The position numbers were made by a program, and so were the translations under genes. Shown here in pieces: positions 46,901 to 63,782 of a stretch of 64,000 nt of DNA; within the stretch, counting starts at the first letter, position 1, and the number at the start of each line of letters is the position of its first letter. The DNA is from a virus (lineage: Duplodnaviria; Heunggongvirae; Uroviricota; Caudoviricetes). The notes under the pieces were generated by a model. The model did not search any database and was not told where the DNA came from. It worked only from the letters and a program-made list of their open reading frames with translations. The stretch lies in the IMG/VR virus record IMGVR_UViG_3300049597_000059. The stretch is one strand, 5' to 3'.

Positions 46901-48591
46901 ACTATAGCAAAATCATTGCTCCAATAATAGCTCCTCTTGTATCTAATGATTCATTACTATCATTTGCTCAAGGTGCGTTCCAAAGGAACAACTGGAAGGA
47001 TGACAAGATATTTGGTAAGGTGAAGCCTAAGTTCTTCTTAGCTCAGGAGACTCCTATTGCTGTGGATATATATGATAATGACATTTACCAATACTTCTCT
47101 CCAGCTTTCCCTAACATTAAGAACTTAGGAATCAAGTCTACAGACAGAAAGATATTGTTATTGAGTGAGCGTTATAATGCAGCTAGCTTGAAATATGATT
47201 TTGTTAAGGTTCCTAGAGTGGTTGAAGATAGTTTTACAGGAACAAGAGTTAATATGACTAATGGTGAAAATGTAACCAATTCAATGTTTGCAATTAAGAA
47301 ATCTAAAGGTGACCTATCTTTAAAAGACATATACGGTTATCAAAAGGTTAAATATGCTGACGGTAGTCCAGTGATTGTGTATGATGATAAAGGAGTGGGT
47401 AGCCACGTATATAAATTAGTTAATCTATATGGTGACGGTCAATTAGCTTCTGAATACTATGAGAACAATATTCCTTCTGTATTAAACAATGGCACTGTAA
47501 AGATTGCTAATGAGATTACGGATGAAGAAATAATTGCACATTATGGTGGGCAAACTCAACCTAAAGTTGTACCTTTACAATCTATGGCAATTGGAAAACC
47601 TGAGTTCAATAAACTTCCTGCTAAAATTGGAAAGCCAACAATGACCTATGCAGGTATTGGTTCAAGACAAACTCCTCCAGAAGTTCTTAAACAAATGACT
47701 GAGGTGGCTAAACAACTTGAATCAAAAGGATATACATTAAATACAGGCATCACCTTTGGTGGTAAAGAAGAAGGAGCTGATAAAGCTTTCTCTGATGGAG
47801 CTACAAATAAAAATCTATTCTCTCCTGAGAAACAAGGATCTAGAGCTAAAGAACAAGCTATTGCTAACGAGATGCATCCTAATCCATCAGCTTTAACACA
47901 AGGTGCTTTAAAACTAATGGCTAGAAATACCAATCAAATATTTGGTGATAATCTTGATACACCTGTAGACTTTGTATTGTTCTACGCTAAAGAAACTGCT
48001 AGTATTAGACCACAAGGTGGAACAGGTCAAGCTGTAGAAATGGCTAGATTAAAGGGTATTCCTACAATCAATATGGCTAATCCTAATTGGAGAGAAGAAT
48101 TAAATGCAGCGTTAACTCAACCAACAGCTGCTCAAAGTGAACAACCGTTGAGTGCGTATGTAACTGTGGAGCAATTAGAAGCTGATAAATCTTTCTTGAA
48201 TACAGCCATAGAGTTTGTTGATGAAATCTCTACAAACAAAGATGTTCCTGTAGCAATGAGAAACTTAAACAAAGGAGAGAAAATACAAATGGTTAAAGAC
48301 CTGATGCAGAAGAAGTTTGATGATAAAGCTTGGACCAGCCCTGTTACACAGGCAGATGGTAGTAAAGCTACAGCACTTCCTGCAGAACAGTTCAAATCAT
48401 TTAACGAGTTCTTAACGTTTGCTTTGTTACATGAGAAAGCACACGAGACTATATCAAAAGTTTCTGGCGAAACAATTGGTCAGTATGAAGATAGAATCAA
48501 TGCTGCAGCGTTAAACAATATGCCTAAACCTCCTGCTGAATTTGAAGGCGATTTAGAAGGAGCTGATAACCCTAATCCTTGTGGACAATAA
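34903..48591 (+). CDS. giant polyvalent virion protein (4562 aa) with RNA polymerase-like DxDxD catalytic motif, C-terminal SLOG/DprA-like Rossmann domain and HExxH motif
   Basis: One uninterrupted ORF; GSDFDIDKLN at 45001-45018 resembles the two-barrel RNAP metal-binding loop (NADFDGD); MTYAGIGSRQTP… Rossmann-like segment at 47641-48110; LLHEKAHE at 48430-48447; Ala/Pro/Val/Thr linkers between domains. Confidence 0.55.
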   Translation: MAIFDKELIDNTSNRDYGKPEMDLRSPETRKVDVSLGGFEDFAIGGPSRSSGLTIDQLSDFSRVPTNQNTFNSPVQMIPRSELLANQRYNIYERNRDLENVAGLQQSWADQLANGVVKFAAIGGGTFLQSFGTIPNTVSALKTGKLSELSGGPDGYESKVGDWLTNIEDIFPNYYTRREKESPFLAALPFAPGSANFWGDKIIKNLGFTAGAIGGAVVQDLAIGAITGGIGEIPLVAAQIGKASLYLNKLFTGTNRLDEVLNLATQLGKTEKQILNIKRLGEVAAATKVTDGARYALNIYGSARTEAAIEARDGYKQVRENLINQYKLENLGEEPTGADAKQIEDLATNAMNTRFGINMALLTVSNAVQFGNLFKSFSNASSSGISGSLTRELEDIGKFGLKEGSIDVFESKAAKTLRGKIWESVKPKVANIFTEGVYEEGGQFAAERGTFDYYTRKYKNLNDPNNKQNWNELNEVINSTNKGLADQYGSEEGLENMFVGALSALISGGIMSRIDSVKGKGADARLQSTINMLNRYGITGMLQDNYTDTLNSAAIAKEMDTAAKSGNIFKYKNLKKDMFFNFVNSRIPSGMHDVTLEQLNMLKDLSKEEFEKTFGMDFNTSNKNTVDAYVDNLISNANKIKSTVDSLDSTFKNPFAKITDPKTPEEAVAANNHDVFNEWKTNLAYYAMVAPDANDRLSSISQTVAGVNPLINNDLLGKLTDPTSLRELSSNYEERANQLNRTITEFTSPEDKKAIKAQVKALRTSAERINLAINNRDLDMKTFNSLLNFELNNLDSTKDDVVGMERASELYGYGVDINKLIGLKRSASSILDELASESGLEKFFKEASEIASEEPPTTVPGEEEAPAAEVTPAVVPQYTNVKGKRENLELNREYEVAKLRPSKVNRLAEDRWQVISPDGTFEIYPTKEKAQEIAKDLDEEFASLAKVKIVALNEDGTAKVEDKDGNIYNIDTRKLSGFNKVESEQEKLQKVADQLGRQQQEVEKKSGIVATGNPSLETFEKEDPKKSANILYTSTTGASETWEQLAKPHQVRSRQFLNNVKNFGNRANMKIILVTPNQEESLGLKGLSELSGSTDTSVENGLVAAVYVVQSNGKNYFVDKDGKQLTEVGQPVDMNVVVFSTMPTAALYNSKGDPRFRKQEEAQAKEMSRAWTVKRAELFAAPAGTYTIYDFGVSKGVPITDRNERKFVGDNLVPQKKIATQENLIVISTTGTLAYNGENLKFPVGRPVLQYGDTLQYVDNRTFTNDEAKSIFEAIRLLSEEVQSQNTKGETIELNRLYTDFLQNVLYWRKGKDTKDNQIHIDERSMELYIGGDKYNFADIASNEAAIVSKLKGTFNNVNNESLKKTSEPFIELYFENGFLQNREWANYQSYLLSNKYPDGKNRSITDTPLSTYVNKPTDAVPYNYVRKYAILEGLDLPVQQTAPVVTPVAEAAPSADKLGEFFVNGTENTISLKEPLGETKFTATINSDGNVVAEVISNPKIQAIAATAEKAKPYLDFLKNTMGTDGKPLFDATKSVEDSILQFVALNISARLQAIKNEQAAAAPVVTTAATVTQTTPYGTEAAPAVVTSTESVDKKSGIKGTLTGQGTSLELEVIGDTGKEFLLTVDRKGNISLFSEKQSDGSYKSGEPASKEAVDKLYNKYISEKTRTAITNWLNSFTGSWAAPETQDGKNYDKAEKALNAELAALEGQPTVAVPALISPVIQSSLDMLSKAQELLNAQSKKFEKYIPAVQKYLDTKKQQLQDPKLTVEQREKIAKTIEMDMKIPIVSLNNLVLEFDTGRVEKIYINNPETKESYNFTAFFQENGERNFENNPNYAFNPDERLGQGSNYGYDIVSKNSIIPIEGLNLREAETLRHILSGADPKATQYAASGDENLGQGLLMGVIKHYFIEKAAGRMQRDYWDYLQDPRKEMREQIEAMEAQPATAPKNFGATKPPSNSEYRRVGVGGVERINDAEIEIFKRWAAENVPGIPFEILDNIISTNDGEKAWGAFEKGVAKFYKSAARGTEYHEVFEGIWKAFLTEEQRQAILDEFKSKPGTFTDRQSGKKIAYDQATDKQAKERIADDFADFKVGKLPARSIGERILNFFRNIIEFVKQFVNKPTQKQELFKAIEAGKFKEMTVPDSVKNDMSEYRAVEGLSERQTHEFVQDITARSFQIMFGTNTSLYNPEKLTAPDIFNQVKSQYAEEGKLELLGENAWNQLVNKTKEFLRTFKLEFDENQSISINDENVNKNDYAPEPFSTDWKKSSSFAIKLLIGTLTETTPSNQENASSMALPAQKLSDVMGYKLLNFTRSFATVLDKLANTTKVTSVVDKLIDLAKYDSNYVRLFTRVGGNRNNMVIDFSKFEAQDWRLFVNFYQTFTKQKPDALIQYVSGDEVYTGSANLYTAANSVKEGWIENMKALSKVEGSLISYNSGTKTYKVGDLTNVSNKTPEEMITFLGNLGIEFPMEVYSKLKTVQKNKFANAIGGLIISLRGKNDILSVTGKVLDINGPLSLISELYVKVTNPNIDATYFNVENRRTNAFSENNAPSLFENLFNEANTLDELLEARPELKDIFSASSQVLKKGGLFFDEDGNRIRSIKVSYIQGTKLVDENDGTATSRLTEGERFTQEFNQNLNGNYYVLIPADGSTEWMMNLGNNVRFSAFENGTAWGKVYTTFKGYLKDEINLALTAASRTQLMNVGNKASELRFFNDILSKDTLASINNLIAKEASEEEINAFIEANIGDINKSIKDYIDGVSDVTFKTLAANGEIYVNTKGEYSYPKLDDVFAKAEKFNKFKLSEKKLNNIISFANANYIINNIEYHKILFGDPYQFKIKDNILDETKRIKSFLSPRRTTFDSPDYNTFLNQELNKAGEIELNEGDPGFQKFKPYTNTITLKDVKVLGRLLGETNEADAASYLMDGTYKEVKLKNGQWSDEAEAWHQWQMAYTRNKMAAKGDYTYTNDSLRAQDEKTISKPEPLYITEVLKPIVTGNKYGATQFDLVLDKFSQLPLYYKAIEGTNLEKLYVKMMKEDVGYVIFESGRKVGTETLYSLYNGDGSLNDGGFDNKIQVPWSAYGIQVENSYEGSKQQTRGSQPTKLASLNLFNNGVATSPEAASEYARNKEILDRMHENGYNELLRKLGIEDLGDGFKLTTNVDVSKLLEYEMLRREMSDNAKDTVQLDENGQFRIPFEASNAYVQIRNILYSMVDKALTSPKMNGGPKVQVPVTGWENAKAGRKIALKTKDGFKEISKVEYNNLSEEDKKKVRLTDDTLKFYTKDQPYCEVLLPHWFKVKFGKKFPDDKALLNYLNSTAEGRSILTGVGFRIPTQELSNIEVFRVKGFLPQSMGDTIVVPSEITTKAGSDFDIDKLNTYLKATYLDKNGDIRLVKYKGSEEATKEFYANVFNEMLDKKTVKKNEILDALYIMNNDASDPENLVDRYSGILDAMISELGDVNTTEGLEERLAAELDKLSDATLQAELKDKYVRDMYKKSLENEYYDSLTKLLTLPENFERLISPIGDAGLKDLASKLDKLRGYDESTIKNRMLDRNYLTKLRHAFVTAKRWVGIAAVNITNHSLTQKISAYIDPSKFELVNEVDRKILGDGKVALPHNTVNVNGEERISLSSILDKAGKYISGKLSGYATAFVDVAKDPYILKIIGSDLAVGTFMYLERIGVPIETTAMFMNQPIIKEYLTYLDNTGARGLFNQKNIDAVKSKFVTTGTLINSAGVSVDTLEDNISEYYSKGELSEPKNAEQHVILNEFLKYAKMAEYLFNFGQAINYDTTKFRSGDALFKKETRTEVAEDINIISSVNELLDASFIGKQAELIASSMEAMGEIFKLEKDEFRVITNSILKSFAKDQYLSADDYDRIANKLKASLLDYIIQTKSGLNGEIKALLVDAGTSVASQLAEAKRNNPGLTILNDLQVVSSDRVDGAKSIKLLANNKDAYDENLYTGYMRELRDNPSTTELYNNIVKLSILQGTYQTGISIKNIIPIEDYSKIIAPIIAPLVSNDSLLSFAQGAFQRNNWKDDKIFGKVKPKFFLAQETPIAVDIYDNDIYQYFSPAFPNIKNLGIKSTDRKILLLSERYNAASLKYDFVKVPRVVEDSFTGTRVNMTNGENVTNSMFAIKKSKGDLSLKDIYGYQKVKYADGSPVIVYDDKGVGSHVYKLVNLYGDGQLASEYYENNIPSVLNNGTVKIANEITDEEIIAHYGGQTQPKVVPLQSMAIGKPEFNKLPAKIGKPTMTYAGIGSRQTPPEVLKQMTEVAKQLESKGYTLNTGITFGGKEEGADKAFSDGATNKNLFSPEKQGSRAKEQAIANEMHPNPSALTQGALKLMARNTNQIFGDNLDTPVDFVLFYAKETASIRPQGGTGQAVEMARLKGIPTINMANPNWREELNAALTQPTAAQSEQPLSAYVTVEQLEADKSFLNTAIEFVDEISTNKDVPVAMRNLNKGEKIQMVKDLMQKKFDDKAWTSPVTQADGSKATALPAEQFKSFNEFLTFALLHEKAHETISKVSGETIGQYEDRINAAALNNMPKPPAEFEGDLEGADNPNPCGQ

Positions 48592-53687: not shown

Positions 53688-56600
53688 ATGGACATTACTT
53701 GTTCAGCTGAACCGTGCCCGATTATACTAAATTCTACCTGCGTATTCTACGAGGGTAACACTTTGGTGTATACAGGTATTAATACTAACGACAATCTTCA
53801 GACTGCTTTACAGAAAATAGATCAAAAGTTTCAAGACGCTGGTTTAGGTTATATATTTACGAATGGTATTGAACAACTAACTCCTGGTGGTGCAGTTATG
53901 TTGGGTGGAGCATTGATTCAAAACACTACAATTGGTGGGTTATACAATCTTGCATTTGCTGGTACATTGGAAGCATCTGCTCTCATCACTACAGGCGGTA
54001 CATCTTCAGATTTTGTAAAGGGTGATGGTAGCTTAGATCCAACTAGCTATCAGCCAGCAGGCAATTATATTTCAAATTTAACAGGTGATGTAACAGCTAA
54101 CGGACCAGGTTCTGTAACTGCTACACTAGCAACAGTATTTGGTGCACCTGGAACATATGGTAATTCAGGAAGCGTTCCTCGTATTACAGTGGATGGTAAG
54201 GGTAGGATTACAAATGTTACCCCTGTAGCAATCAACTATCCAGCTCAATCATTAAGTTTTACAGGCGATGTAAGTGGATCTGGTTTCACTGGATCTCCAG
54301 TTACACTAACATTAGATACAGTTAATTCTAATGTATACGGAAGTAACACATTCCTTAAGTTTGCTGTAAATGGTAAAGGTCTTGTGACCTCTGCTGCTCC
54401 TGTTACACAAGGAGATATTGTATCTGCATTAGGGTATGTACCAGTTCCTACAAGCAGAACGTTAAGTATTAATGGTGTAACCTATGACTTATCTGCAAAT
54501 AGAAACTGGTCTGTAGGTACTGTGACAAGTGTGCAACTTGCTATGCCTCAAGCATTTCAAATCACAACACCTCCTGTAACTTCTTCAGGAACTATAAATG
54601 TTATAGCAACAGGATCGATAGCTCAATATATAAGAGGTGATGGTACCTTAGGTAACTTCACAGCTACAGCAGGTACCTCTGGTACTGCAGGTACAAGCGG
54701 AACATCTGGCACTAGCGGTACAACAGGTACTTCTGGAAGTTCAGGTACAAGTGCTACATCAGGGTCATCAGGGTCATCAGGTATAGATGGCACATCTGGT
54801 ACAAGTGGAACCACAGGAACTTCAGGTAGCTCTGGTACATCTGGCAGTTCAGGAACTGCTGGTACAACAGGTACATCAGGTACAGCAGGTACCAGTGGAA
54901 GCTCAGGTACTACAGGTACTAGTGGCAGTTCTGGAACCTCAGGATCAAGTGGTACAGCAGGTACAACAGGTACGTCTGGAACCAGTGGTACAGATGGAAC
55001 AGGGGGAACTTCTGGGACAAGTGGTACTAGTGGATCCTCTGGAACCACAGGTACGTCAGGTACTACAGGAACAAGTGGATCTTCAGGTACTGATGGTTCT
55101 GGTGGAACATCTGGTACATCTGGTACTAGTGGCACCAGTGGAACAAGTGGGACTAGTGCAACTGATGGTACAGGAGGTACTTCTGGTACATCAGGAACAA
55201 CAGGTTCATCTGGCTCTTCAGGTACAACAGGAACTAGCGGATCAAGTGGAACTAGTGGTAGTGCTGGTACATCAGGCACCACAGGTACAAGTGGGACCTC
55301 TGGAACATCAGGAAGTTCAGGAACATCTGCAACAGATGGTACTGGAGGTACTAGTGGAACTAGTGGGACATCAGGTACTTCTGGAACCACAGGAACTAGT
55401 GGTACTACAGGTACGTCTGGCTCTTCAGGAAGTAGTGGAAGTTCAGGTTCTTCAGGTACCACTGGAACAAGTGGCACAAGTGGAACAGCAGGTACATCAG
55501 GTATAAATGGTGTATCTGGAGGACTTATATACTATCTAAATCAATCATTAAATACAAGTTCTGCTTTTGGCAGTCCTACATATAAGCAGTGGTCTCCAAT
55601 TGGAACAGGCACTGGGGAACAAACTATAACAACAAGTATTGCAGGTTCTACAAGAACTCTCTTTGCTACATATGCTACAGATTCAAATGTTCCAGGTATA
55701 ACAAGTATACCTTCAGGACTTTGGGCTTGGGTAACACACTTCTCTATCAACGCTAATGTTAGCGTTAAAGTGGATATAGAGCTTTACAAATGCAACTCTA
55801 CAGGTGGAAGTGTAGTGTTTCTTGGAACAACCAACCTTGACACTGAATCAATGTCAAGTGGTGTTATCAAAGAATTTTTCACAGACTTATTCCTTCCTCA
55901 AACTGCAATGTTATCTACAGATAGACTTTACTGTCAAATCTATGTAGAGCATACAGGTGCAGGAAGTCAAAGCATTACATTCTATACAGAAGGAACAAGT
56001 AATTATTCATACGCACAAACCACATTCACTCCTCCTAGTGGTACTTCTGGATCTTCAGGTACATCAGGTGTTGGAGGAACTAGTGGCACATCTGGCACTA
56101 GTGGAACTGATGGTACGAGTGGAACTAGTGGTGTAAGTGGATCTAGTGGTACAACTGGTACCTCTGGAACTACTGGAACCAGTGGGTCTTCAGGAACTGC
56201 AGGCACAAGTGGAACTGATGGAACAGGAGGAACAAGCGGTACTAGTGGTACGACAGGCTCTTCAGGTTCTAGTGGAACAACAGGTACAAGTGGGACAAGT
56301 GGTACGTCTGCAACAAGTGGAACAAGTGGCACAACAGGAACTTCTGGCTCTAGTGGCTCAGCAGGTTCTAGTGGTACGTCTGGTACTAATGGAACAGGTG
56401 GTACAAGTGGTACTTCAGGAACCACTGGAACATCAGGTTCTTCTGGCAGTAGTGGCATCAATGGCACATCAGGATCCTCAGGTACTACAGGATCCTCAGG
56501 AACATCTGGTATTAATGGATCTAATGGCACCTCAGGTACAGCTGGTTCTTCAGGAACAAGTGGTACAAGTGGAACCAATGGTACAGGTGGTACGTCAGGT

Positions 56601-59600
56601 ACCACAGGTACATCAGGCTCTAGTGGTACATCAGCCACAAGTGGTACGTCTGGTACAACAGGAACCTCTGGTACAACAGGCTCTAGTGGGTCTAGTGGTA
56701 CAACAGGAACCAGCGGTAGCTCAGGAACAAGTGGAACTTCTGGCACCAGTGGTACGTCAGGTACAAGTGGTAGCTCAGGTAGCTCTGGTAGAGATATTGG
56801 TTCTAGTGCTGTTATTATATTAGGTGCTGGGACATGTTCATCAGTTAGGTGTGGTGTTTTAAATGCTGCATCAGGGAGCTGTAGCTCTGTCGTAGGTGGT
56901 AAGAACAATGCAGGATTAGGTGTATCTTCTTTTATTGGGGCAGGTATTTTTAACACTGCTTGTGACTACTCATTAGTAGGGGCAGGTAGTTCAAATACTG
57001 CTTCAGGATATATATCAACAATTGGAGGAGGTTTTAGTAACACTGCATCAGGTAGTATATCTTTTATTGGAGCAGGAAATGTTAATACAGCTTCAGGATG
57101 TACTTCTGCTGTTGTAGGAGGTCAAAGCAATATTTCATCAGGTGCTTTTAGTTTTGTAGGAGGAGGATGTGGAAACTGTGGAAATAATTCATATTCTACA
57201 AGTATTGGAGGTCAAGCAAATGTGGCTGTTGCAAATTTTGCTACAACGTTAGGAGGATATAATAACTCAGCAAGTGGATATAATTCAATTGTTGGAGGTA
57301 GAAGTAACACATCAAGTGGAAACTATTCAGGAATATTTTCAGGTAAACAAAATAGTTCTTCAGGTATTTATTCAGCAGTATTAGGTGGACGTCTAAATAC
57401 AGCATCAGCCAATTGTTCAACAATAGGTGGCGGTCAACAAAACGTAGCTTCAGGAGCTTGGTCATTTATTGGAGGTGGTAATTGTAATACTGCTAATAAT
57501 AATAGGTCAATTGTAGTAGGAGGGCTTCTGAATACATCTTCAGGACTATATTCAACAGTTGGTGGTGGTAGTTATAATACTGCATCAGGAAGATATGCTT
57601 TAGTAGGTGGAGGTTCATCAAACACTTCTTCAGCTTATGGTTCAACAGTATCAGGAGGATATAAAAACTGTGTAATAAATACTAACGCTACTATTGGTGG
57701 TGGTCTTTGCAATTTTATATGTAATGCAACAACAGTTATTTCTTCAGCAGGTGCGACTATAGCAGGTGGGGTTGGTAATAACACAAGTGGTGGTACTTGG
57801 AATGGTTGTAGATTTAACAATCCTCCTACAGCATTTTATGCAGCAGGATGTTTATCTTTTATTGGTGGGGGTTATCAAAACAGAGCCACTGCAACTTACT
57901 CTACAGTTGTAGGAGGTTATTTAGGAATATCTACAGGATGTTTTTCTTTTATTGGTAGTGGATATAATAATACTGCTTCAGGTAATTACTCAGCAGTAGT
58001 TGGTGGTGATTCAAATACAGCCAATGGAGGTAATGCATTTGTTGGTAGTGGTTTAGGTAACGTAGCAAGTGGAAGCAGGTCAGTTGTTTCAGGTGGTCAG
58101 TCCAATACTGCATCAGGAGGATTTTCATTAATAGCAGGAGGTAGGCAAAACACTTCTTCAGGTACTTATTCTCTTGTTACAGGAGGTTATTTAAATTGTT
58201 CTTCATCAACTTGGTCTACAGCAGGTGGTGGTAAGCAAAATACAGCATCAGGTTATATATCAACGGTTGCAGGAGGATGGCAAAACACAGCTAACGCAGA
58301 TAGTTCTTCTGTATTAGGTGGTGGTAAAAATGGTGCTACAGGTGCTTATTCAACTATTTCAGGAGGATATTTAAATAGTTCAGGTGGAGCTTTCTCAGCT
58401 GCTTTAGGAGGACTTCAAAATTCTGCATCAGGAGTTAGGTCTTTTGTAGGTGGAGGACAGGCTAATACTGCTTCAGGATGTTTTGCAACTGTTGCAGGAG
58501 GTTGTGGTTCAGTGGCAAGTGGTTATTCCTCTGTATCAGCAGGTTTTGGAAGTAATGCGTCAGGGGGGTATTCAGGTGCTTTGAGTGGTAGTTTTAATAC
58601 AGCATCAGGAAGTGAATCAGTAGTTTCAGGAGGTGCATCAAATACAGCATCTGCTTATACATCATTTGTAGGTGGTGGTGGTAGTAATATATCTTGTGGT
58701 ATAGCTTCAGTAATAGCAGGTGGTAAATCTAATACAGCTTCAGGTGGTTGTTCTACAGTAGCAGGAGGTTGTGGTAACACTGCAACTTGTCGCTTTGCGT
58801 TTGTAGGTGGAGGTAGATTAAACTCAGCAAGTGGTGCTTATGATGCAACTATAGGTGGTGGTTATTTTAATATAGCTTCAGGAACATACGCTTCTACTGT
58901 AAGTGGTGGGTACAATAACTGTTCTACAAGCCACATGAGTACAGTTGGTGGTGGTAGATTCAATACTGCCTCAGGATATTGCTCTACAGTTAGTGGTGGT
59001 CATAGTAACTGTGCAACTGTTGAGGGAGCTGCTGTAGCAGGTGGTTCTACCAACTCTGCAACTTCTAATCATTCTTTTGTAGGAGGTGGTCTTCAAAACA
59101 CAGCTAATGCTATTAGAGCTACAGTAGCAGGTGGAAGATGTAATACTGCTTCAGGTAATTGTTCATTTATTGGAGGAGGAGATATAAATACAGCTTCAGG
59201 AGCACATTCAACTATTAGTGGGGGTTTAACTAACACAGCAAGTGGTTATCGTTCTTTCTTAGGGGGTGGTCAAAGCAATACAGCTAATAACGATTGGGCT
59301 GCTTTAGGAGGCGGTAGAGCAAACTGTGCCAATGGTGCATATTCAGGAACTTTTAGTGGTAGATACAACACTTCTCCAGGTGCTTATGCTTTTACAGGAG
59401 GTGGATATAATAGTACGTCTAGTGGTAATTTTTCAACTGTTGCAGGTGGTCGTGACCATACAGCATCAGGATATAGAAGTTTTATTGGTAGTGGTAATTC
59501 AAACACTTCTTCAGGAGATTCATCTGCTATTGTAGGTGGTCAGCTAAATACTTCTTCAGGAAGGTGTTCTTTTATAGGAGGCGGTAATTCAAATACAGCA

Positions 59601-60353
59601 TCGGGTGCATATTCAGTTGTAGTTGGTGGTAATTCTAACACTGCATCAAGCTATCGTTCTTTTGTTGGAAATGGTGATAATAACGTAGTGAGTTCTAATA
59701 GAGGTTTTATAGGTGCAGGGTATACTAATTCAGTATCAGGTAACTATTCAGCCGTTGTGGCAGGATACAATAACTGTGTTACAGTGTGTCACATGGGATT
59801 CATTGGTGCAGGAAGATTGAATACAGTTTCTTCTTCTTATAGAGGAGGTATTGTTAGTGGTGGTTGTAATACTGTTAGTGGTTCTCATGCATTTGTTGGT
59901 GCAGGTCAAGGCAATACTGCTTCAGGAAGTCACTCTGCAGTATTAAGTGGAATATCTAATACTATTTCAGGAAATTATTCAGGTGGTGGTGGATGTGGAA
60001 TATCAGGAACTTGTATAAATACATTCTATTGGAATAACTTCTGTGCAACGTCTTGTATGTGGGCTACAGCTTACTTTGAATCTTCTGATGAAAGATTGAA
60101 GGACATTCATTGTAGAGTGGGTTCTTTTGATAACATCAACCCTATCTATTTCAATTGGAAAGAAGGAGATGCAAGTGTTATTAACATAGGATATTCTGCT
60201 CAGAATGTTAAAGAAATTCTTCCAGATACAATCAGAACAGATGAGAAGGGTTATTACAACGTAGACTATCATCAAGTTCACATATACAAAATGATGAAGA
60301 TGGAAGAAAGACTTGCCAAATTAGAGGAAAGACTTAAAAAATATGAATCATGA
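53688..60353 (+). CDS. tail fibre (2221 aa) with collagen-like regions, YadA-like beta-roll repeats and C-terminal S74 intramolecular chaperone domain
   Basis: N-terminal Cys anchor motif; phage tail-fibre repeats (ITVDGKGRITNV / AVNGKGLVTSA); two Gly-X-Y blocks; many NTASGxxSxVxGG repeats; C-terminal SSDERLKDIH… (Ser-Lys autoproteolytic chaperone signature). Confidence 0.65.
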   Translation: MDITCSAEPCPIILNSTCVFYEGNTLVYTGINTNDNLQTALQKIDQKFQDAGLGYIFTNGIEQLTPGGAVMLGGALIQNTTIGGLYNLAFAGTLEASALITTGGTSSDFVKGDGSLDPTSYQPAGNYISNLTGDVTANGPGSVTATLATVFGAPGTYGNSGSVPRITVDGKGRITNVTPVAINYPAQSLSFTGDVSGSGFTGSPVTLTLDTVNSNVYGSNTFLKFAVNGKGLVTSAAPVTQGDIVSALGYVPVPTSRTLSINGVTYDLSANRNWSVGTVTSVQLAMPQAFQITTPPVTSSGTINVIATGSIAQYIRGDGTLGNFTATAGTSGTAGTSGTSGTSGTTGTSGSSGTSATSGSSGSSGIDGTSGTSGTTGTSGSSGTSGSSGTAGTTGTSGTAGTSGSSGTTGTSGSSGTSGSSGTAGTTGTSGTSGTDGTGGTSGTSGTSGSSGTTGTSGTTGTSGSSGTDGSGGTSGTSGTSGTSGTSGTSATDGTGGTSGTSGTTGSSGSSGTTGTSGSSGTSGSAGTSGTTGTSGTSGTSGSSGTSATDGTGGTSGTSGTSGTSGTTGTSGTTGTSGSSGSSGSSGSSGTTGTSGTSGTAGTSGINGVSGGLIYYLNQSLNTSSAFGSPTYKQWSPIGTGTGEQTITTSIAGSTRTLFATYATDSNVPGITSIPSGLWAWVTHFSINANVSVKVDIELYKCNSTGGSVVFLGTTNLDTESMSSGVIKEFFTDLFLPQTAMLSTDRLYCQIYVEHTGAGSQSITFYTEGTSNYSYAQTTFTPPSGTSGSSGTSGVGGTSGTSGTSGTDGTSGTSGVSGSSGTTGTSGTTGTSGSSGTAGTSGTDGTGGTSGTSGTTGSSGSSGTTGTSGTSGTSATSGTSGTTGTSGSSGSAGSSGTSGTNGTGGTSGTSGTTGTSGSSGSSGINGTSGSSGTTGSSGTSGINGSNGTSGTAGSSGTSGTSGTNGTGGTSGTTGTSGSSGTSATSGTSGTTGTSGTTGSSGSSGTTGTSGSSGTSGTSGTSGTSGTSGSSGSSGRDIGSSAVIILGAGTCSSVRCGVLNAASGSCSSVVGGKNNAGLGVSSFIGAGIFNTACDYSLVGAGSSNTASGYISTIGGGFSNTASGSISFIGAGNVNTASGCTSAVVGGQSNISSGAFSFVGGGCGNCGNNSYSTSIGGQANVAVANFATTLGGYNNSASGYNSIVGGRSNTSSGNYSGIFSGKQNSSSGIYSAVLGGRLNTASANCSTIGGGQQNVASGAWSFIGGGNCNTANNNRSIVVGGLLNTSSGLYSTVGGGSYNTASGRYALVGGGSSNTSSAYGSTVSGGYKNCVINTNATIGGGLCNFICNATTVISSAGATIAGGVGNNTSGGTWNGCRFNNPPTAFYAAGCLSFIGGGYQNRATATYSTVVGGYLGISTGCFSFIGSGYNNTASGNYSAVVGGDSNTANGGNAFVGSGLGNVASGSRSVVSGGQSNTASGGFSLIAGGRQNTSSGTYSLVTGGYLNCSSSTWSTAGGGKQNTASGYISTVAGGWQNTANADSSSVLGGGKNGATGAYSTISGGYLNSSGGAFSAALGGLQNSASGVRSFVGGGQANTASGCFATVAGGCGSVASGYSSVSAGFGSNASGGYSGALSGSFNTASGSESVVSGGASNTASAYTSFVGGGGSNISCGIASVIAGGKSNTASGGCSTVAGGCGNTATCRFAFVGGGRLNSASGAYDATIGGGYFNIASGTYASTVSGGYNNCSTSHMSTVGGGRFNTASGYCSTVSGGHSNCATVEGAAVAGGSTNSATSNHSFVGGGLQNTANAIRATVAGGRCNTASGNCSFIGGGDINTASGAHSTISGGLTNTASGYRSFLGGGQSNTANNDWAALGGGRANCANGAYSGTFSGRYNTSPGAYAFTGGGYNSTSSGNFSTVAGGRDHTASGYRSFIGSGNSNTSSGDSSAIVGGQLNTSSGRCSFIGGGNSNTASGAYSVVVGGNSNTASSYRSFVGNGDNNVVSSNRGFIGAGYTNSVSGNYSAVVAGYNNCVTVCHMGFIGAGRLNTVSSSYRGGIVSGGCNTVSGSHAFVGAGQGNTASGSHSAVLSGISNTISGNYSGGGGCGISGTCINTFYWNNFCATSCMWATAYFESSDERLKDIHCRVGSFDNINPIYFNWKEGDASVINIGYSAQNVKEILPDTIRTDEKGYYNVDYHQVHIYKMMKMEERLAKLEERLKKYES
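54664..55524 (+). repeat. Collagen-like (G-T/S-S/T)n coding repeat block 1 (about 287 aa)
   Basis: Strict Gly every third codon (GGN-ACN-AGY); generates spurious long antisense ORFs. Confidence 0.8.
56043..56795 (+). repeat. Collagen-like Gly-X-Y coding repeat block 2 (about 250 aa)
   Basis: Same triplet periodicity as block 1. Confidence 0.8.
56830..59990 (+). repeat. About 13-14-aa degenerate coding repeats (NTASGxxSxVxGGxx), YadA-head-like
   Basis: Dozens of tandem copies visible in the translation; typical of left-handed parallel beta-roll fibres. Confidence 0.6.
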
Positions 60354-60829
60354 GTTGGGCAGGTATAGCAAGTAATCAATGTATATCTTTTAACAACCTA
60401 CAGGATGCTGTAACCACAGGGGTGTTTGCATTAAAAAATAGCATACCTGCAAGCACAGAGCAGATTACAAAAGCTGATGCTGATTATTATGTATATATTG
60501 ATACTACTTATGGTCCTTATGCATCAAAAGCTTCTAACCAATTAGTTGTAAAATCAAACTTACAGCCAGCCACTACAACTACCACTACAACATCAATTGT
60601 TTGTCAGCAAATTTTCCTATATCCTAATAATGTAAACCCATGTGACCATTTCAATACTTTAACATTGTTTGATACAGACAGTGCTTTATTCCCTACTAAA
60701 CTTTACGTATTAGGTGGTTGTGGAACAACTCCTGTAGCAGGTGGAAACTTATGGTATTCTCAGGGACCAGGGTCTGACAGTTATCAAGTGGACAACAGTG
60801 GTAATATTATTAGTATATTCCCTTGTTAA
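60350..60829 (+). CDS. small poly-Thr-linked two-domain protein
   Basis: 159 aa; C-domain (LFDTDSALFPTKLYVLGGCGTTPVAGGNLWY…VDNSGNIISIFPC) paralogous to the 15701 C-domain. Confidence 0.4.
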   Translation: MSWAGIASNQCISFNNLQDAVTTGVFALKNSIPASTEQITKADADYYVYIDTTYGPYASKASNQLVVKSNLQPATTTTTTTSIVCQQIFLYPNNVNPCDHFNTLTLFDTDSALFPTKLYVLGGCGTTPVAGGNLWYSQGPGSDSYQVDNSGNIISIFPC

Positions 60830-60875: not shown

Positions 60876-61223
60876 ATGGCAAATCCATTTAACACACTTC
60901 ACATCTTTGGCTTTGGTACAGTACAAGTAATCACTGATACCCAAAACGTACAGGCAAATGTTTCTGACTTCCAAGCTCTAGTAGACGCTTGCGTAGATGA
61001 TGTATGGGCAAACAAACCAGAAGGTTACACTGGTCCTAAAGAGTACCATGCAATTAACACATTCTATGACCTTTTCTCTGATTGGCTACCAAGTCAACAA
61101 GGTGCACAAAGTTTCAGAGTACAGTATGCAGACTTAGATACTACAGCTTTTGTAGATCTTGCTGAGGCTGTTTTGGCTGGTCCTACAACCACCACAACTA
61201 CTACTACAGCTGTTGAAGAATAA
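60876..61223 (+). CDS. small protein with C-terminal poly-Thr tail
   Basis: 115 aa ending GPTTTTTTTTAVEE. Confidence 0.4.
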   Translation: MANPFNTLHIFGFGTVQVITDTQNVQANVSDFQALVDACVDDVWANKPEGYTGPKEYHAINTFYDLFSDWLPSQQGAQSFRVQYADLDTTAFVDLAEAVLAGPTTTTTTTTAVEE

Positions 61224-61233
61224 TATTAAATAA

Positions 61234-61265
61234 TTTGGTTTTATTATAAGCAATGTATACCTTTG
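61234..61265 (+). promoter_or_regulatory. Putative Bacteroidota-type promoter (TTTG 61234-61237; TACCTTTG 61258-61265)
   Basis: Exact TAnnTTTG 16 nt before ATG 61282; TTTG 20 nt upstream; same 8-mer as the promoter at 137. Confidence 0.45.
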
Positions 61266-61281: not shown

Positions 61282-62157
61282 ATGAATATCATTTTCCAAA
61301 TCAATGGTGGTATAGGTAAGTGTATACTTGCTACATCTGTTTGTGAAGCAATTCACAAACAATATCCTGATAGTCAATTAATTGTAATGAGCGGTTACCC
61401 AGAGGTGTTTATAAACAACCCCTTTGTGTATCGCTCATTTTCTTTTGGTATGACACAATACTTCTATGAAGATTTCATAGAGGGTAAAGAGTTTAAGGTG
61501 TTTGCACATGATCCATATGTACAGACAGAACATCTTATGCAGAATGAACATTTAAGCCATACATGGACAAGAATGTTTGGTGTTCCTACACCTGAAGATG
61601 TTACTCCTAAGCTCTATATTACAGATAGAGAACGTAAGTTCTTTGGTCAGAAGTTTACGTCTGACAGACCTATTTTATTATTACAAACAAATGGTGGTGC
61701 TCCAGGACAAGAGTTGAAATACTCATGGGCTAGAGACATTCCTAGTTATGTAGTGGAGAATGTTATACATGAATTTAAAAATGACTATAACATTGTACAC
61801 ATAAGAAGAGAAGATCAGATTGGTTATGACTTCACCACTCCTGTTACAGATAACTTCAGAGCACTTGCTGTTCTTATAGAACTTAGTAGTAAGAGATTGT
61901 TGATGGATAGCTTTGGTCATCATGCAGCTGCTGCTATGAATAAACCTTCTACAGTGTTATGGGTGTGTAATAAGCCTGAGGTGTTTGGATATGATGTACA
62001 TGATAACATTGTATGTAATCCATTCACTAAGAAGCCTGAGTTACGCAATGCATACTTGCAGAAGTTTGATATATCAGGGAACCTATTAGAGTTTCCATAT
62101 AACAATGAGAAAGAAATATTTAATGTAGATCAAATTATAGCATCTTTAAAATCTTAA
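61282..62157 (+). CDS. glycosyltransferase family 9 (heptosyltransferase-like)
   Basis: N-terminus IIFQINGGIGKCILATSVCEAIHKQYPDSQLIV resembles the GT9 N-terminus (LIIRxSSxGDVxxTxPAxxxLKxxYPxAxIDWLV); C-terminal LLMDSFGHHAAAAMNKPSTVLW matches the GT9 GNDSGPMHLAAALGTPTVALFG motif. Confidence 0.55.
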   Translation: MNIIFQINGGIGKCILATSVCEAIHKQYPDSQLIVMSGYPEVFINNPFVYRSFSFGMTQYFYEDFIEGKEFKVFAHDPYVQTEHLMQNEHLSHTWTRMFGVPTPEDVTPKLYITDRERKFFGQKFTSDRPILLLQTNGGAPGQELKYSWARDIPSYVVENVIHEFKNDYNIVHIRREDQIGYDFTTPVTDNFRALAVLIELSSKRLLMDSFGHHAAAAMNKPSTVLWVCNKPEVFGYDVHDNIVCNPFTKKPELRNAYLQKFDISGNLLEFPYNNEKEIFNVDQIIASLKS

Positions 62158-62158
62158 T

Positions 62159-62977
62159 ATGGAGAATATATTCTATCAAAGCTCTTTACCAAGAGCAGGT
62201 TCAACATTGTTACAAAACATACTAGCACAAAACCCAGACATTTATGCTACACCAACTAGTGGTGTTCTTGAATTAGTGTTTGCTGCTAGAGGAAACTATA
62301 CAGACAGCCCTGAGTTCCAAGCTCAAGATCCACAGATAATGAAAGCTGCATTCCAAGCATTCTGTAAAGAAGGAATGATTGCTTATTACAATGCTATTAC
62401 AGATAAGAAATATGTTGTAGATAAATCTCGTGGATGGGGAATACATTATGACTTCTTAAACTTCATCCACCCAGAGCCAAAGATTATATGCATGGTGAGA
62501 GACCTACGTGATGTCTTTGCTTCTATGGAGAACAACTATAGAAAGAATCCTGATAAGGCTAACGCTATTCTTAATTGGGCACAGATGCAAGGAACAACAG
62601 TTCCTAAACGTATAGATATCTGGGCACAGAGTCAACCTGTTGGACTAGCTATAGAAAGATTACAAGAGATGTTTAGGCTAGGAATAGACAAACATGTATT
62701 GTTTGTTAAGTTTGAAGACTTGTGTCTATATCCAGATACAGAGATGCAAAGGATATATCAATACCTAGGCATTCCTTATTACCAACATGATTGGGATAAT
62801 ATAGAACAAGTTACTAAGGAAGATGATGAGGTTTATGGTAGCTTTGGTGACCACACTATTCGTACTAGATTAGAACCTGTTCCTTCTAGAGCTAAACAGT
62901 TATTAGGTAAGGATGTTACAGGTTGGATATGGGACAACTATCAATGGTTCTTTCAACAATTTAGATATACAAAATGA
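62159..62977 (+). CDS. sulfotransferase
   Basis: 5'-PSB loop LPRAGSTLL and 3'-PB motif MVRDLRDVFASM in the canonical order for PAPS-dependent sulfotransferases. Confidence 0.6.
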   Translation: MENIFYQSSLPRAGSTLLQNILAQNPDIYATPTSGVLELVFAARGNYTDSPEFQAQDPQIMKAAFQAFCKEGMIAYYNAITDKKYVVDKSRGWGIHYDFLNFIHPEPKIICMVRDLRDVFASMENNYRKNPDKANAILNWAQMQGTTVPKRIDIWAQSQPVGLAIERLQEMFRLGIDKHVLFVKFEDLCLYPDTEMQRIYQYLGIPYYQHDWDNIEQVTKEDDEVYGSFGDHTIRTRLEPVPSRAKQLLGKDVTGWIWDNYQWFFQQFRYTK

Positions 62978-63411
62978 TAATAGTATTATTTGGACAGCCT
63001 GCATCAGGCAAGACAACTCTTGCTAAAAAGTTTATAGCAGAGGGATTCCACCACATAGATGGTGATGAACTAAGAGATATGTTTAAGAACAAAGACTACA
63101 GCAAAGAAGGTAGGATTAAAAACTTAAACAGAGCTAGTGACATTGCTTACTATTTGAATAAAGCAAGAAACTATAACATAGTGTTATCACTAGTGTATCC
63201 TTACGAAGAAGCTAGAGAGTACCTAAGCAGTCTAACTAGAGATGTTAAATGGATCTATCTCACATATGAAGAAGATAGAGGTAGAGATCAATTTAAAGTG
63301 GCAGACTTTGAACCACCACAGAAAGATGATGTAGATTTAATTATTAATACGTCTAACACTTCTATTGAAGACAGTGTAGATAAAATCAAATATGTATGCA
63401 GAATATTCTAG
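62974..63411 (+). CDS. cysC: adenylylsulfate (APS) kinase-like P-loop kinase
   Basis: GQPASGKTT P-loop; HIDGDELR (APS kinase LDGDNxR); KNLNRASDIAYYL…IVLSLVYPY parallels CysC ENIRRVGEVA…VLTAFISPH. Confidence 0.5.
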   Translation: MIIVLFGQPASGKTTLAKKFIAEGFHHIDGDELRDMFKNKDYSKEGRIKNLNRASDIAYYLNKARNYNIVLSLVYPYEEAREYLSSLTRDVKWIYLTYEEDRGRDQFKVADFEPPQKDDVDLIINTSNTSIEDSVDKIKYVCRIF

Positions 63412-63782
63412 CAAAAGGTAATGGTAATGGAAGTGGTTATGCAATGTTCATAGGAAGATGGCAACCATGGCATCCTGGTCACAGATGGTTGATTGATCAG
63501 AAATTAAATGAAGGTAAGAATGTTCTTCTCTGTGTAAGAGATGTTACTCCTGATGAGAAGAATCCTTGGTCTGCATGGCAAGTTATGATGAATCTAACAG
63601 AAGAATTAATGGATCTTATTGAGGAAGGAAGAGTTAGACTCATGATTATACCTGATATTGAATCTGTTAATATTGGTAGGGGTATTGGTTATGATGTTGT
63701 AGAACACGTACCACCTCAAGATATACATGATATATCTGCTACAAAGATTAGAGAACAATTAAAGGCTGAAGGGAAGCTATAA
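63396..63782 (+). CDS. cytidylyltransferase-like (HxGH) nucleotidyltransferase, 128 aa
   Basis: FIGRWQPWHPGH (H-x-G-H) near the N-terminus and ISATKIREQL near the C-terminus, the two signature motifs of the NMNAT/TagD/HldC-type nucleotidyltransferase fold. Confidence 0.5.
   Translation: MQNILAKGNGNGSGYAMFIGRWQPWHPGHRWLIDQKLNEGKNVLLCVRDVTPDEKNPWSAWQVMMNLTEELMDLIEEGRVRLMIIPDIESVNIGRGIGYDVVEHVPPQDIHDISATKIREQLKAEGKL

Follow-up and report, generated by a model that had tools for sequence, protein, structure and literature searches.

A putative glycosylation and sulfation cassette of an environmental phage and its predicted two-protein PAPS synthase

The window considered here, by which we mean the whole stretch of 64,000 nucleotides that was analysed, comes from IMG/VR record IMGVR_UViG_3300049597_000059, a virus assigned to the Caudoviricetes. 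Near its end four consecutive genes encode a glycosyltransferase (GT291), a sulfotransferase (ST272), a kinase (K145) and a small nucleotidyltransferase (NT128), the numbers giving the protein lengths in amino acids (aa). An earlier note on this DNA had proposed that the four make up a module for donor synthesis and transfer; its four open reading frames (ORFs) and every motif that it quoted were recovered, all on the + strand, and the idea of such a module in a phage holds. Beyond what the note described, the island around the cassette also holds a convergent gene for an 1128-aa enzyme of the BAHT type and, upstream, a tail fibre that resembles an autotransporter adhesin (Table 1). The window encodes the phage hallmark proteins large terminase, portal, major head and tail, and across the shared stretch it is 100% identical to a 114.6-kb IMG/VR contig. 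The source is probably an environmental phage of roughly 115 kb with a host in the Bacteroidota.

The genes for GT291 and ST272 are separated by 1 nt, those for ST272 and K145 overlap by 4 nt and those for K145 and NT128 by 16 nt. This arrangement points to a single transcription unit with translational coupling, and the four genes are presumably co-transcribed as one module. We regard the four ORFs as true genes and not chance ORFs, because homologs with 35-100% protein identity are kept in the same order across 68 distinct IMG/VR contigs; the same cassette is also present, identical, in independent JGI, ENA and Logan assemblies. The cassette had been said to have its own Bacteroidota-type promoter, and a full motif of this type does lie just upstream of GT291. 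By its count alone the motif is not significant (three in the window versus 1.46 expected, and at least three in 17 of 100 shuffles), which leaves it suggestive. Among the 68 distinct GT291 homologs in IMG/VR, 17 have the complete motif before GT291, and in 32 a -7 box is found no more than 45 nt away. Scans for sigma-70 promoters and terminators gave no signal over background.

Table 1. Positions, in the window, of the cassette genes and of the features around them
Feature	Position	Strand	Assignment or remark
GT291 (291 aa)	61282-62157	+	divergent GT9-fold (GT-B) glycosyltransferase, probably nucleotide-heptose dependent
ST272 (272 aa)	62159-62977	+	PAPS-dependent sulfotransferase
K145 (145 aa)	62974-63411	+	compact APS (adenylyl-sulfate) kinase, predicted
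NT128 (128 aa)	63396-63782	+	mini HxGH nucleotidyltransferase of an unnamed NadM-derived family; putative APS-forming role
Promoter-like motif, Bacteroidota-type, TTTG-N20-TACCTTTG	61234-61265	+	ends 17 nt 5' of the GT291 start codon
Tail fibre (2221 aa)	53688-60353	+	candidate acceptor
159-aa ORF	60350-60829	+	poly-Thr linker, between fibre and cassette
115-aa ORF	60876-61223	+	poly-Thr linker, between fibre and cassette; kept in 17/54 relatives
1128-aa multidomain enzyme, last 83 codons	63748-64000	-	end of Aah/TibC-type (BAHT) protein O-heptosyltransferase domain
4562-aa ORF	34903-48591	+	single ORF in the structural region

The most readily assigned of the four proteins is ST272, which had been called a sulfotransferase of the type that uses 3'-phosphoadenosine 5'-phosphosulfate (PAPS), and on its sequence matches this assignment is secure. 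It matches Pfam Sulfotransfer_3 at 3.1e-20 (73.8 bits, cutoff 27) and Sulfotransfer_1 at 7.7e-14 (52.1 bits, cutoff 22), and it carries both PAPS-binding motifs, PRAGSTLL for the 5'-phosphosulfate-binding motif (5'-PSB, residues 11-18) and RDLRDVFAS for the 3'-phosphate-binding motif (3'-PB, residues 113-121). The best NCBIfam match is NoeE (1.9e-11), and PHROG 27463 is matched at 4.5e-42. By sequence, the nearest solved relatives are the tyrosylprotein sulfotransferases TPST1/2, and the alignment with TPST1 spans both motifs.

K145 had been described as like the kinase of adenosine 5'-phosphosulfate (APS), and APS kinase is indeed its best family, though the protein is a compact form. Pfam APS_kinase (PF01583) is matched at 1.2e-8 (35.6 bits, cutoff 21.1) over residues 2-90 only, the best PDB matches are APS kinases (2yvu at 1.4e-6, and also 8a8h), and the best NCBIfam matches are adenylyl-sulfate kinase models, among them the apsK equivalog TIGR00455 at 34.5 bits, which is below its cutoff of 138.7. 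K145 retains the P-loop GQPASGKTT and the motifs DGDELR, YSKEGRIKNLNR and VYPY, which line up with those of 2yvu, 8a8h and the fusion protein P0279 (see below); YSKEGRIKNLNR represents the [FY]SxxxRxxNxxR motif and VYPY the xSP[YF]-type motif of the APS and ATP sites. Residues 2-81 have 38% identity to a canonical APSK domain. The canonical mobile lid, RDxKGLYKKARxGEIxxFTGID, is replaced by RGRDQFKVADFEPP, which is about 13 residues shorter. The compact type is a common partner of NT128-like genes in cellular genomes, where it shares the slot upstream of the nucleotidyltransferase (NT) gene with canonical CysC. We read K145 as a compact APS kinase and predict that it has this activity.

NT128 had been placed in the cytidylyltransferase fold, in agreement with its match to Pfam CTP_transf_like at 3.8e-4, which is just at the cutoff. 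Its motifs are GRWQPWHPGH, GRGIGY and ISATKIR. The best NCBIfam match is a nicotinamide mononucleotide (NMN) adenylyltransferase (NMNAT) of the NadM type, with 31 bits versus a cutoff of 127, and the best solved relatives are archaeal NadM-type NMNATs, the PDB matches being confined to the ATP-binding half. The segment from PDIE to ISAT has about 23 residues, compared with about 46 in MJ0541, and only eight residues follow the ISAT motif. The middle segment of the NMNATs (about 23 residues) and their C-terminal helices, which we take to be the NMN-binding part, are missing from NT128. In their stead there is a GRxVGY motif, which is specific to the NT128 family and nearly invariant in it. The family, with about 110 residues per member, is large: clustering at 90% identity gives more than 5000 clusters, and at 50% identity (E <=1e-10) there are 439 representative ones. 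The sources label its members only as 'cytidyltransferase-like' or 'NMN adenylyltransferase'.

By sequence, the NT family lies outside the Sat family of ATP sulfurylases. NT128 does not match the ATP-sulfurylase Pfam model (Sat, PF01747), the Sat motifs QxRNPxHxxH and GRDHAG are absent in the window, and Sat is not among the best 60 of the 69 PDB matches (E up to 10) of a broad NT-family profile. Two observations hint at homology to Sat: a fusion protein, P0284, has a sub-threshold match to the ATP-sulfurylase Pfam (21.6 bits versus 24.3), and the alignment of the Sat-CysC model NF004040 extends into the NT domain of a fusion. With Sat missing from those 60 best PDB matches, we regard both hints as weak.

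The role that we predict for NT128 comes mainly from the company that its relatives keep. In bacteria, archaea and phages alike, their genes nearly always stand beside an APS-kinase gene or are fused to one. Homologs with 46-67% identity occur in Marinimicrobia, Flavobacteriales, Saprospiraceae, Nitrospiraceae, Acidobacteriota and marine archaea of the Poseidoniales and Marine Group III (MGIII). Some of their contigs are several hundred kb long, and 67 loci were classed as cellular; the loci represent one genome per species, all were retrieved with the same one motif pattern, they cluster phylogenetically, and their ORF calls are crude. A gene of the APS-kinase family is adjacent in 60 of the 67, and in 51 of the 73 loci in which the NT gene was called it lies directly upstream. 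Both the compact K145 type and full-lid CysC occur as this partner, and the canonical DGDN[VIL]RxG[LI] signature is present in 22 loci. A sulfotransferase or CysQ is found within about 6 kb in 27 of the 67, one of the CysQ neighbours scoring above its equivalog cutoff. The cellular loci are polysaccharide-biosynthesis loci, with Wza-type export, flippase, GT4, sugar dehydratase and aminotransferase genes. The neighbours that recur there beside the pair of kinase and nucleotidyltransferase (K-NT) are sulfotransferases and CysQ, not the assimilation genes cysH/cysIJ. Signatures of Sat, CysD and CysN were found in none of the 176 fetched loci, which were scanned together with their flanks, and none were found in the window.

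The strongest evidence for the predicted role of NT128 is provided by domain fusions. According to hidden Markov model (HMM) searches, 29 of the 36 NT-family representatives of at least 200 aa are fused to an APS-kinase-family domain, 22 of them in the order K-NT and seven in the order NT-K. Full-length APS_kinase domains (E 1e-40 to 1e-69) are present in seven of the ten long members that were scanned, and the four of these fusions that were also searched against NCBIfam all score above the apsK equivalog cutoff. NT128 has 50% identity (E 2e-36) to the NT domain of the fusion P0279. The only name given to such fusions in the sources is 'adenylyl-sulfate kinase'. K-NT fusions also occur in cultured siphophages, for example gp32 of Xylella phage Salvo (L001:5578-6324) and a protein of Stenotrophomonas phage DLP_6 (L002:4593-5324), which belong to PHROG 10255 and are annotated 'kinase'. 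A few long members are without an APS kinase, namely P0300 (249 aa) and P0309/P0367 (374-378 aa), which have a DUF6717 fusion or about 240 unassigned N-terminal residues.

Whether the same cassette occurs in other phages was a check that the earlier note had proposed, and it does. Gene content was counted in the 54 GT291-bearing relatives whose contigs extend at least 5 kb downstream. An ST272 homolog is present in 52 of them, almost always as the next gene after GT291, a K145 homolog in 42 and an NT128 homolog in 36; all 36 of the latter have the sulfotransferase, the kinase and the nucleotidyltransferase jointly. Ten relatives have the sulfotransferase without K or NT and six have K without NT, and none has NT without K. 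These counts show that the glycosyltransferase and the sulfotransferase are the conserved core of the island and that K and NT are a frequent accessory. In this phage lineage K and NT are found only on contigs that also bear the sulfotransferase, usually right behind it and with overlapping reading frames.

The cassette is part of an island of glycan-modification genes that lies immediately downstream of the genes for the tail fibre and is mosaic and variable. Identity to the window differs strongly from gene to gene (L007, L008, L010); in L007, for example, it is 92% for the sulfotransferase, 71% for the glycosyltransferase, 63% for K and 48% for NT, which indicates recombination of the cassette genes across phage lineages. 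In six relatives (e.g., L029:10117-12736, L015:8604-11184, L062:10142-12429 and L074:3653-6284) a block of five genes is inserted between K and NT, encoding a cupin, a HAD phosphatase, a PfkB kinase (best match HldE domain I), a 133-aa cytidylyltransferase and an epimerase like ADP-heptose 6-epimerase. The cupin occupies the place where a GmhA-type isomerase would be expected. The 133-aa protein has rfaE_dom_II (HldE domain II) as its best match, at 3.5e-29, and it co-occurs with an NT128 homolog. Because an ADP-heptose-type block has been inserted into the cassettes of these relatives, the sugar of the island is likely to be heptose. Further inserts in relatives encode FkbM methyltransferases, a GT25 glycosyltransferase of the lipopolysaccharide (LPS) type and a SET-domain protein.

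Another gene that is frequent in the relatives, and missing from the window, encodes a DUF2061 membrane protein of about 70 aa, which follows NT in 37 of the 54 (L029:13023-13247). It is also present in L097, L118, L135, L141 and L147, which are phage-like contigs binned with metagenome-assembled genomes, and there too it is linked to the putative sulfate-activation pair. Literature searches, which did not extend to reading the papers that mention DUF2061, gave no description of its function.

A module of this kind had been called rare in phages, which is true of the cultured ones only. At the nucleotide level the cassette has no match among 50,697 phage records, none of which contains it; the best protein matches are 28-35% identical and come mostly from cyanophages and marine single-virus genomes. 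Metagenomes, by contrast, contain thousands of homologs of the cassette genes.

The fourth protein, GT291, had been described as GT9 heptosyltransferase-like. This stands for its predicted fold, which is GT-B and clearly GT9, with the LPS heptosyltransferases WaaF and WaaC as the closest solved structures. It does not stand for Pfam Glyco_transf_9 (PF01075), which is matched with 10.9 bits (E 0.28) and so falls below the cutoff of 22. A PDB sequence search returned nothing, either with the single sequence or with a 13-sequence family profile. As the sequence matches are weak or absent, the assignment of GT291 to GT9 depends on the predicted fold and is made at the fold level only. In an hhalign comparison with WaaC, which is weak (E 0.033), DSFGHHAAAAM pairs with DTGLSHLTAAL, and KYSW with the KHWP region. 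The C-terminal donor-site motifs of GT9 (K-x-W-P and D-[ST]-G-x-x-H-x-x-A-A) can be recognized in GT291, and the residues concerned are invariant across its family.

At the N-terminus, the GT291 family has an invariant GGxGK loop (residues 9-13, window 61282-61320) at the place of the Gly-Asp13 of WaaC/WaaF. Gly12-Lys13 is invariant after strand 1, where WaaC and WaaF share Gly12-Asp13, the equivalence being positional only. Asp13 of WaaC, at the N-terminus of helix 1, serves as the catalytic base. The GGxGK loop may point to an anionic or otherwise unusual acceptor, or to a different catalytic residue.

The tail fibre encoded upstream of the cassette has a collagen-like region (Pfam Collagen 1.1e-58) with nine repeat stretches, the triplets of which are almost all Gly-Ser/Thr, and a region of beta-roll repeats like the head of the trimeric autotransporter adhesin UspA1 (3pr7, 2.4e-21). 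Its C-terminus resembles an endosialidase-type chaperone, with a match to Peptidase_S74 (2.6e-4) just under the cutoff, and a homolog of this C-terminus is present in the locus in 41 of the 54 relatives, mostly upstream of GT291. The fibre gene also explains a local rise in G+C, to 0.41-0.43 compared with about 0.35 elsewhere. The two small poly-Thr ORFs that follow it have no Pfam, NCBIfam or PHROG assignment.

The gene for the 1128-aa enzyme is convergent with the cassette, overlaps its last 35 nt and leaves the window at its end; the complete protein was taken from the same contig (L026:9892-13278, - strand). Residues 795-1122 match TIGR04414, the Aah/TibC 'autotransporter strand-loop-strand O-heptosyltransferase', with 248.1 bits (equivalog cutoff 200), and the fragment in the window matches it at 4e-20. 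The protein also matches Glycos_transf_1 and Glyco_transf_9, with a GT4-type domain before the C-terminal BAHT domain, and in its N-terminal region the sequence, which is the only basis for this, contains a VLDVGPGQG motif like that of S-adenosylmethionine (SAM) methyltransferases. The cysteines of the window fragment, C-x2-C-x15-C-x11-C (CHGC...C...C), have the same spacing as the iron finger of TibC, formed by Cys339/342/358/370 (PMC4358343). In L053 and its relatives the gene for the 1128-aa enzyme is in the same operon, co-directional and directly before K-NT-GT-ST. A gene for a DUF6165 protein stands divergently beside it (L026:13311-13706, L178:8132-8500), and after this come small ORFs, a putative lysis gene with a weak Glyco_hydro_19 match and a second collagen-repeat protein. 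Elsewhere in the structural region, giant ORFs of 1647, 1590, 1121 and 1097 aa adjoin the 4562-aa ORF; the 1647-, 1097- and 899-aa proteins have no Pfam match. PADLOC defence models gave zero matches to the five proteins tested.

We think it probable, though far from settled, that the four genes form a glycosylation and sulfation module in which NT128 and K145 act as a two-protein PAPS synthase, with the phage's own fibre as the favoured acceptor. NT128 would adenylylate sulfate (ATP + sulfate -> APS + pyrophosphate, PPi) and K145 would phosphorylate the APS to PAPS, so that the two would constitute a minimal PAPS synthase that frees ST272 from the PAPS supply of the host. GT291, with the neighbouring 1128-aa enzyme, would build a glycan or glycoconjugate that ST272 then sulfates. 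The acceptor would be the fibre, which is adhesin-like and rich in Ser/Thr and would be modified while still in the cytoplasm, ahead of assembly.

The formation of APS by NT128 is the simplest explanation for three observations. First, its adjacency and fusion to APS kinase, in both orders, mirror the bifunctional PAPS synthases. Second, the middle segment and C-terminal helices of the NMNATs have been lost. Third, sulfotransferases and CysQ recur in the loci, and the signatures of Sat and CysDN are absent from the fetched flanks. The earlier note had offered either a sugar nucleotide or an adenylylated intermediate as the product, and the latter option fits if the intermediate is APS. The fibre is favoured as the target because this autotransporter-like protein has an autotransporter-type protein heptosyltransferase encoded next to it, because genes for a heptose donor occur in relatives, because the GT-ST pair is phage-specific, with its homologs on phage-sized contigs, and because the module sits among structural genes.

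Some results limit this proposal. A fold search with NT128 cannot discriminate between the possibilities, and the predicted model is poor at the key motif. In addition, the K-NT fusions of Xylella, Xanthomonas and Stenotrophomonas phages sit amid DNA-metabolism genes (MazG, topoisomerase, DNA ligase), and no sulfotransferase is annotated in the flanks that were inspected. Therefore, additional uses of the K-NT pair are possible.

The enzymology could be the same and the acceptor a different one, namely an envelope glycan of the host such as the LPS core, the capsule or the O-antigen. Heptosylation and sulfation during infection would then mask receptors, block superinfection or spare the progeny from loss on debris. 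We consider this possible but doubtful. It is consistent with the structural similarity of GT291 to the LPS heptosyltransferases, with the polysaccharide-biosynthesis loci, including their Wza-type export and flippase genes, in which the cellular pair is found, and with the GT25 and FkbM genes in the islands of relatives. However, the module lies within the structural block right after the fibre genes, and no integrase was seen in the 64-kb window. The characterized substrates of the family of the accompanying enzyme are autotransporter proteins, and it is an autotransporter adhesin that the fibre resembles. Finally, the homologs of GT291 are located on contigs of phage size instead of in LPS operons of hosts, and the cassette is not the ordinary set of host LPS core genes that the earlier note had considered.

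It is unlikely that K145 and NT128 make APS or PAPS for some other purpose and stand beside ST272 incidentally. Such purposes might include an auxiliary boost of the sulfur assimilation of the host or the production of an adenosine nucleotide with a regulatory or inhibitory effect. Among the viral auxiliary metabolic genes cysC is a common entry (PMC8066274), and both the phage K-NT fusions that are without a nearby sulfotransferase and the ten relatives that have the sulfotransferase without K or NT would be compatible with separate functions. Nevertheless, the K and NT genes of this lineage occur only behind or with the sulfotransferase, as described above, and the cellular pair keeps to sulfotransferases and CysQ and not to cysH/cysIJ.

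Even less probable is that the two proteins are a NadR-like pair for the salvage of NAD+, in which K145 would be a nicotinamide riboside kinase and NT128 an NMN adenylyltransferase, with no relation to the sulfotransferase. This idea is suggested by the NadM-type NMNATs, which are the best curated and solved relatives of NT128, by the label 'NMN adenylyltransferase' that the sources give to homologs, and by the position of some phage K-NT fusions near DNA ligase and nucleotide-metabolism genes. We rejected it because the partner is an APS kinase, which is canonical and above the apsK equivalog cutoff in the fusions and in many neighbours; K145 itself keeps the APS-kinase motifs, NT128 is without the parts of NMNAT named above, and sulfotransferases and CysQ recur beside the pair.

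The proposal, also made in the earlier note, that NT128 is an HldC-like sugar-1-phosphate adenylyltransferase making ADP-heptose for GT291 is the most remote; a small HxGH enzyme beside a GT9-fold transferase and the heptose-pathway genes in relatives' islands would agree with it, but the six relatives with the inserted block have a dedicated heptose adenylyltransferase next to their NT128 homolog, together with homologs of the HldE-I kinase and the ADP-heptose epimerase, NT128 has no NCBIfam match of the HldE or TagD type and none to TIGR02199, and APS kinase is the constant partner of its family even in genomes without nearby heptose genes, so it was rejected.

The conserved combination in which a GT9-fold transferase and a sulfotransferase are joined by a putative PAPS pair, next to genes for a fibre and an enzyme of the BAHT type, is, as far as searchable sources go, undescribed, and the same applies to the probable role of the NT family. 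The literature searched contained no description of an NMNAT-like ATP sulfurylase or of phage sulfation cassettes. Sulfate activation is known from two enzyme types, Sat and CysDN, and the NT family might thus represent a new enzyme class for this reaction. In its widest form our proposal is a tentative one, which we would not expect to hold in all of its parts: the NT128 family would be a third kind of sulfate adenylyltransferase, forming with an APS kinase, compact or canonical, the smallest known PAPS synthase, the phage would use it together with the phage-specific GT9-fold enzyme, the sulfotransferase and the BAHT-type enzyme to decorate its own fibre with sulfated heptose-containing glycans, and this would be the first sulfated phage virion. 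The users of such a synthase, all for the sulfation of glycans, might be Marinimicrobia, Bacteroidota, Nitrospirota, marine archaea and many phages.

If this is true, a tiny enzyme derived from NMNAT would provide the third type of sulfate activation, and the annotation of sulfur and NAD metabolism would change in thousands of genomes and viromes. It would also offer a very small PAPS-regeneration module for enzymatic sulfation. Abundant environmental phages would carry a complete sulfation toolkit, coupled to glycosyltransferases and encoded beside the receptor-binding fibre, and sulfated glycans on virions or infected cells would have to be considered as a factor in adsorption, host range and defence evasion.

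Some of the genes discussed here have counterparts in known systems. Virome surveys list cysC, waaC/waaF and nadM as viral auxiliary metabolic genes in aquatic viromes (PMC8066274). There the genes appear separately, under sulfur, LPS and NAD metabolism, whereas here they form one conserved cassette, and homologs of NT128 are probably misannotated when they receive a 'nadM'-type call. The glycosylation of mycobacteriophage virions was reportedly described by Freeman et al. in 2023. To our knowledge, that system involves neither sulfation nor genes for donor synthesis. Mycobacteriophage virion glycosylation is also cited in PMC12619734. The two systems are alike in that phage-encoded glycosyltransferases modify the phage's own structural proteins, or would do so in the phage described here, and they differ in the enzyme family, the host phylum and the sugar.

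Compared with WaaC and WaaF of the GT9 family, GT291 is about 30-60 residues shorter, scores under the Pfam threshold and has Gly-Lys instead of Gly-Asp13; unlike them, it belongs to a phage-borne lineage and is partnered with a sulfotransferase. The NadM-type NMNATs (1f9a, 1ej2) are the best sequence and fold match to NT128, with GRxQPxHxGH, the next NP[FW] segment and ISxTxIR in common. NT128 differs from them in its GRxVGY motif and in the parts that it has lost, and its genomic ties are to APS kinase, sulfotransferases and CysQ and not to NAD genes.

The heptosyltransferases TibC and Aah and their substrates TibA and AIDA-I (PMC4358343) are the closest parallel to the neighbouring enzyme and the fibre. 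The BAHT domain matches at the equivalog level and has the same iron-finger spacing, a repetitive adhesin-like protein is encoded nearby, and ADP-heptose pathway genes are present in relatives of the phage. In the phage, however, the BAHT domain forms the C-terminus of a larger protein, along with an N-terminal region and a GT4-type domain; instead of a type Va passenger, the putative substrate would be a fibre whose head is like that of trimeric autotransporters, and a sulfation module comes in addition.

The proposed PAPS synthase itself is best compared with the bifunctional ones, that is, metazoan PAPSS1/2 and bacterial Sat-CysC proteins such as that of Aquifex (2gks). In both, a nucleotidyltransferase is coupled to an APS kinase, as a neighbour or as a fusion and in either order, and the partners come from the same broad superfamilies, a HUP-class HxxH/HxGH nucleotidyltransferase and a P-loop APS kinase. 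The NT partner has about 110 residues, compared with 200-400 for the catalytic region of Sat, and it descends from NadM-type NMNATs; unlike Sat, NT128 has neither QxRNPxHxxH nor GRDHAG nor the ATP-sulfurylase Pfam match, and its role is a predicted one. The lid of the phage kinase is truncated.

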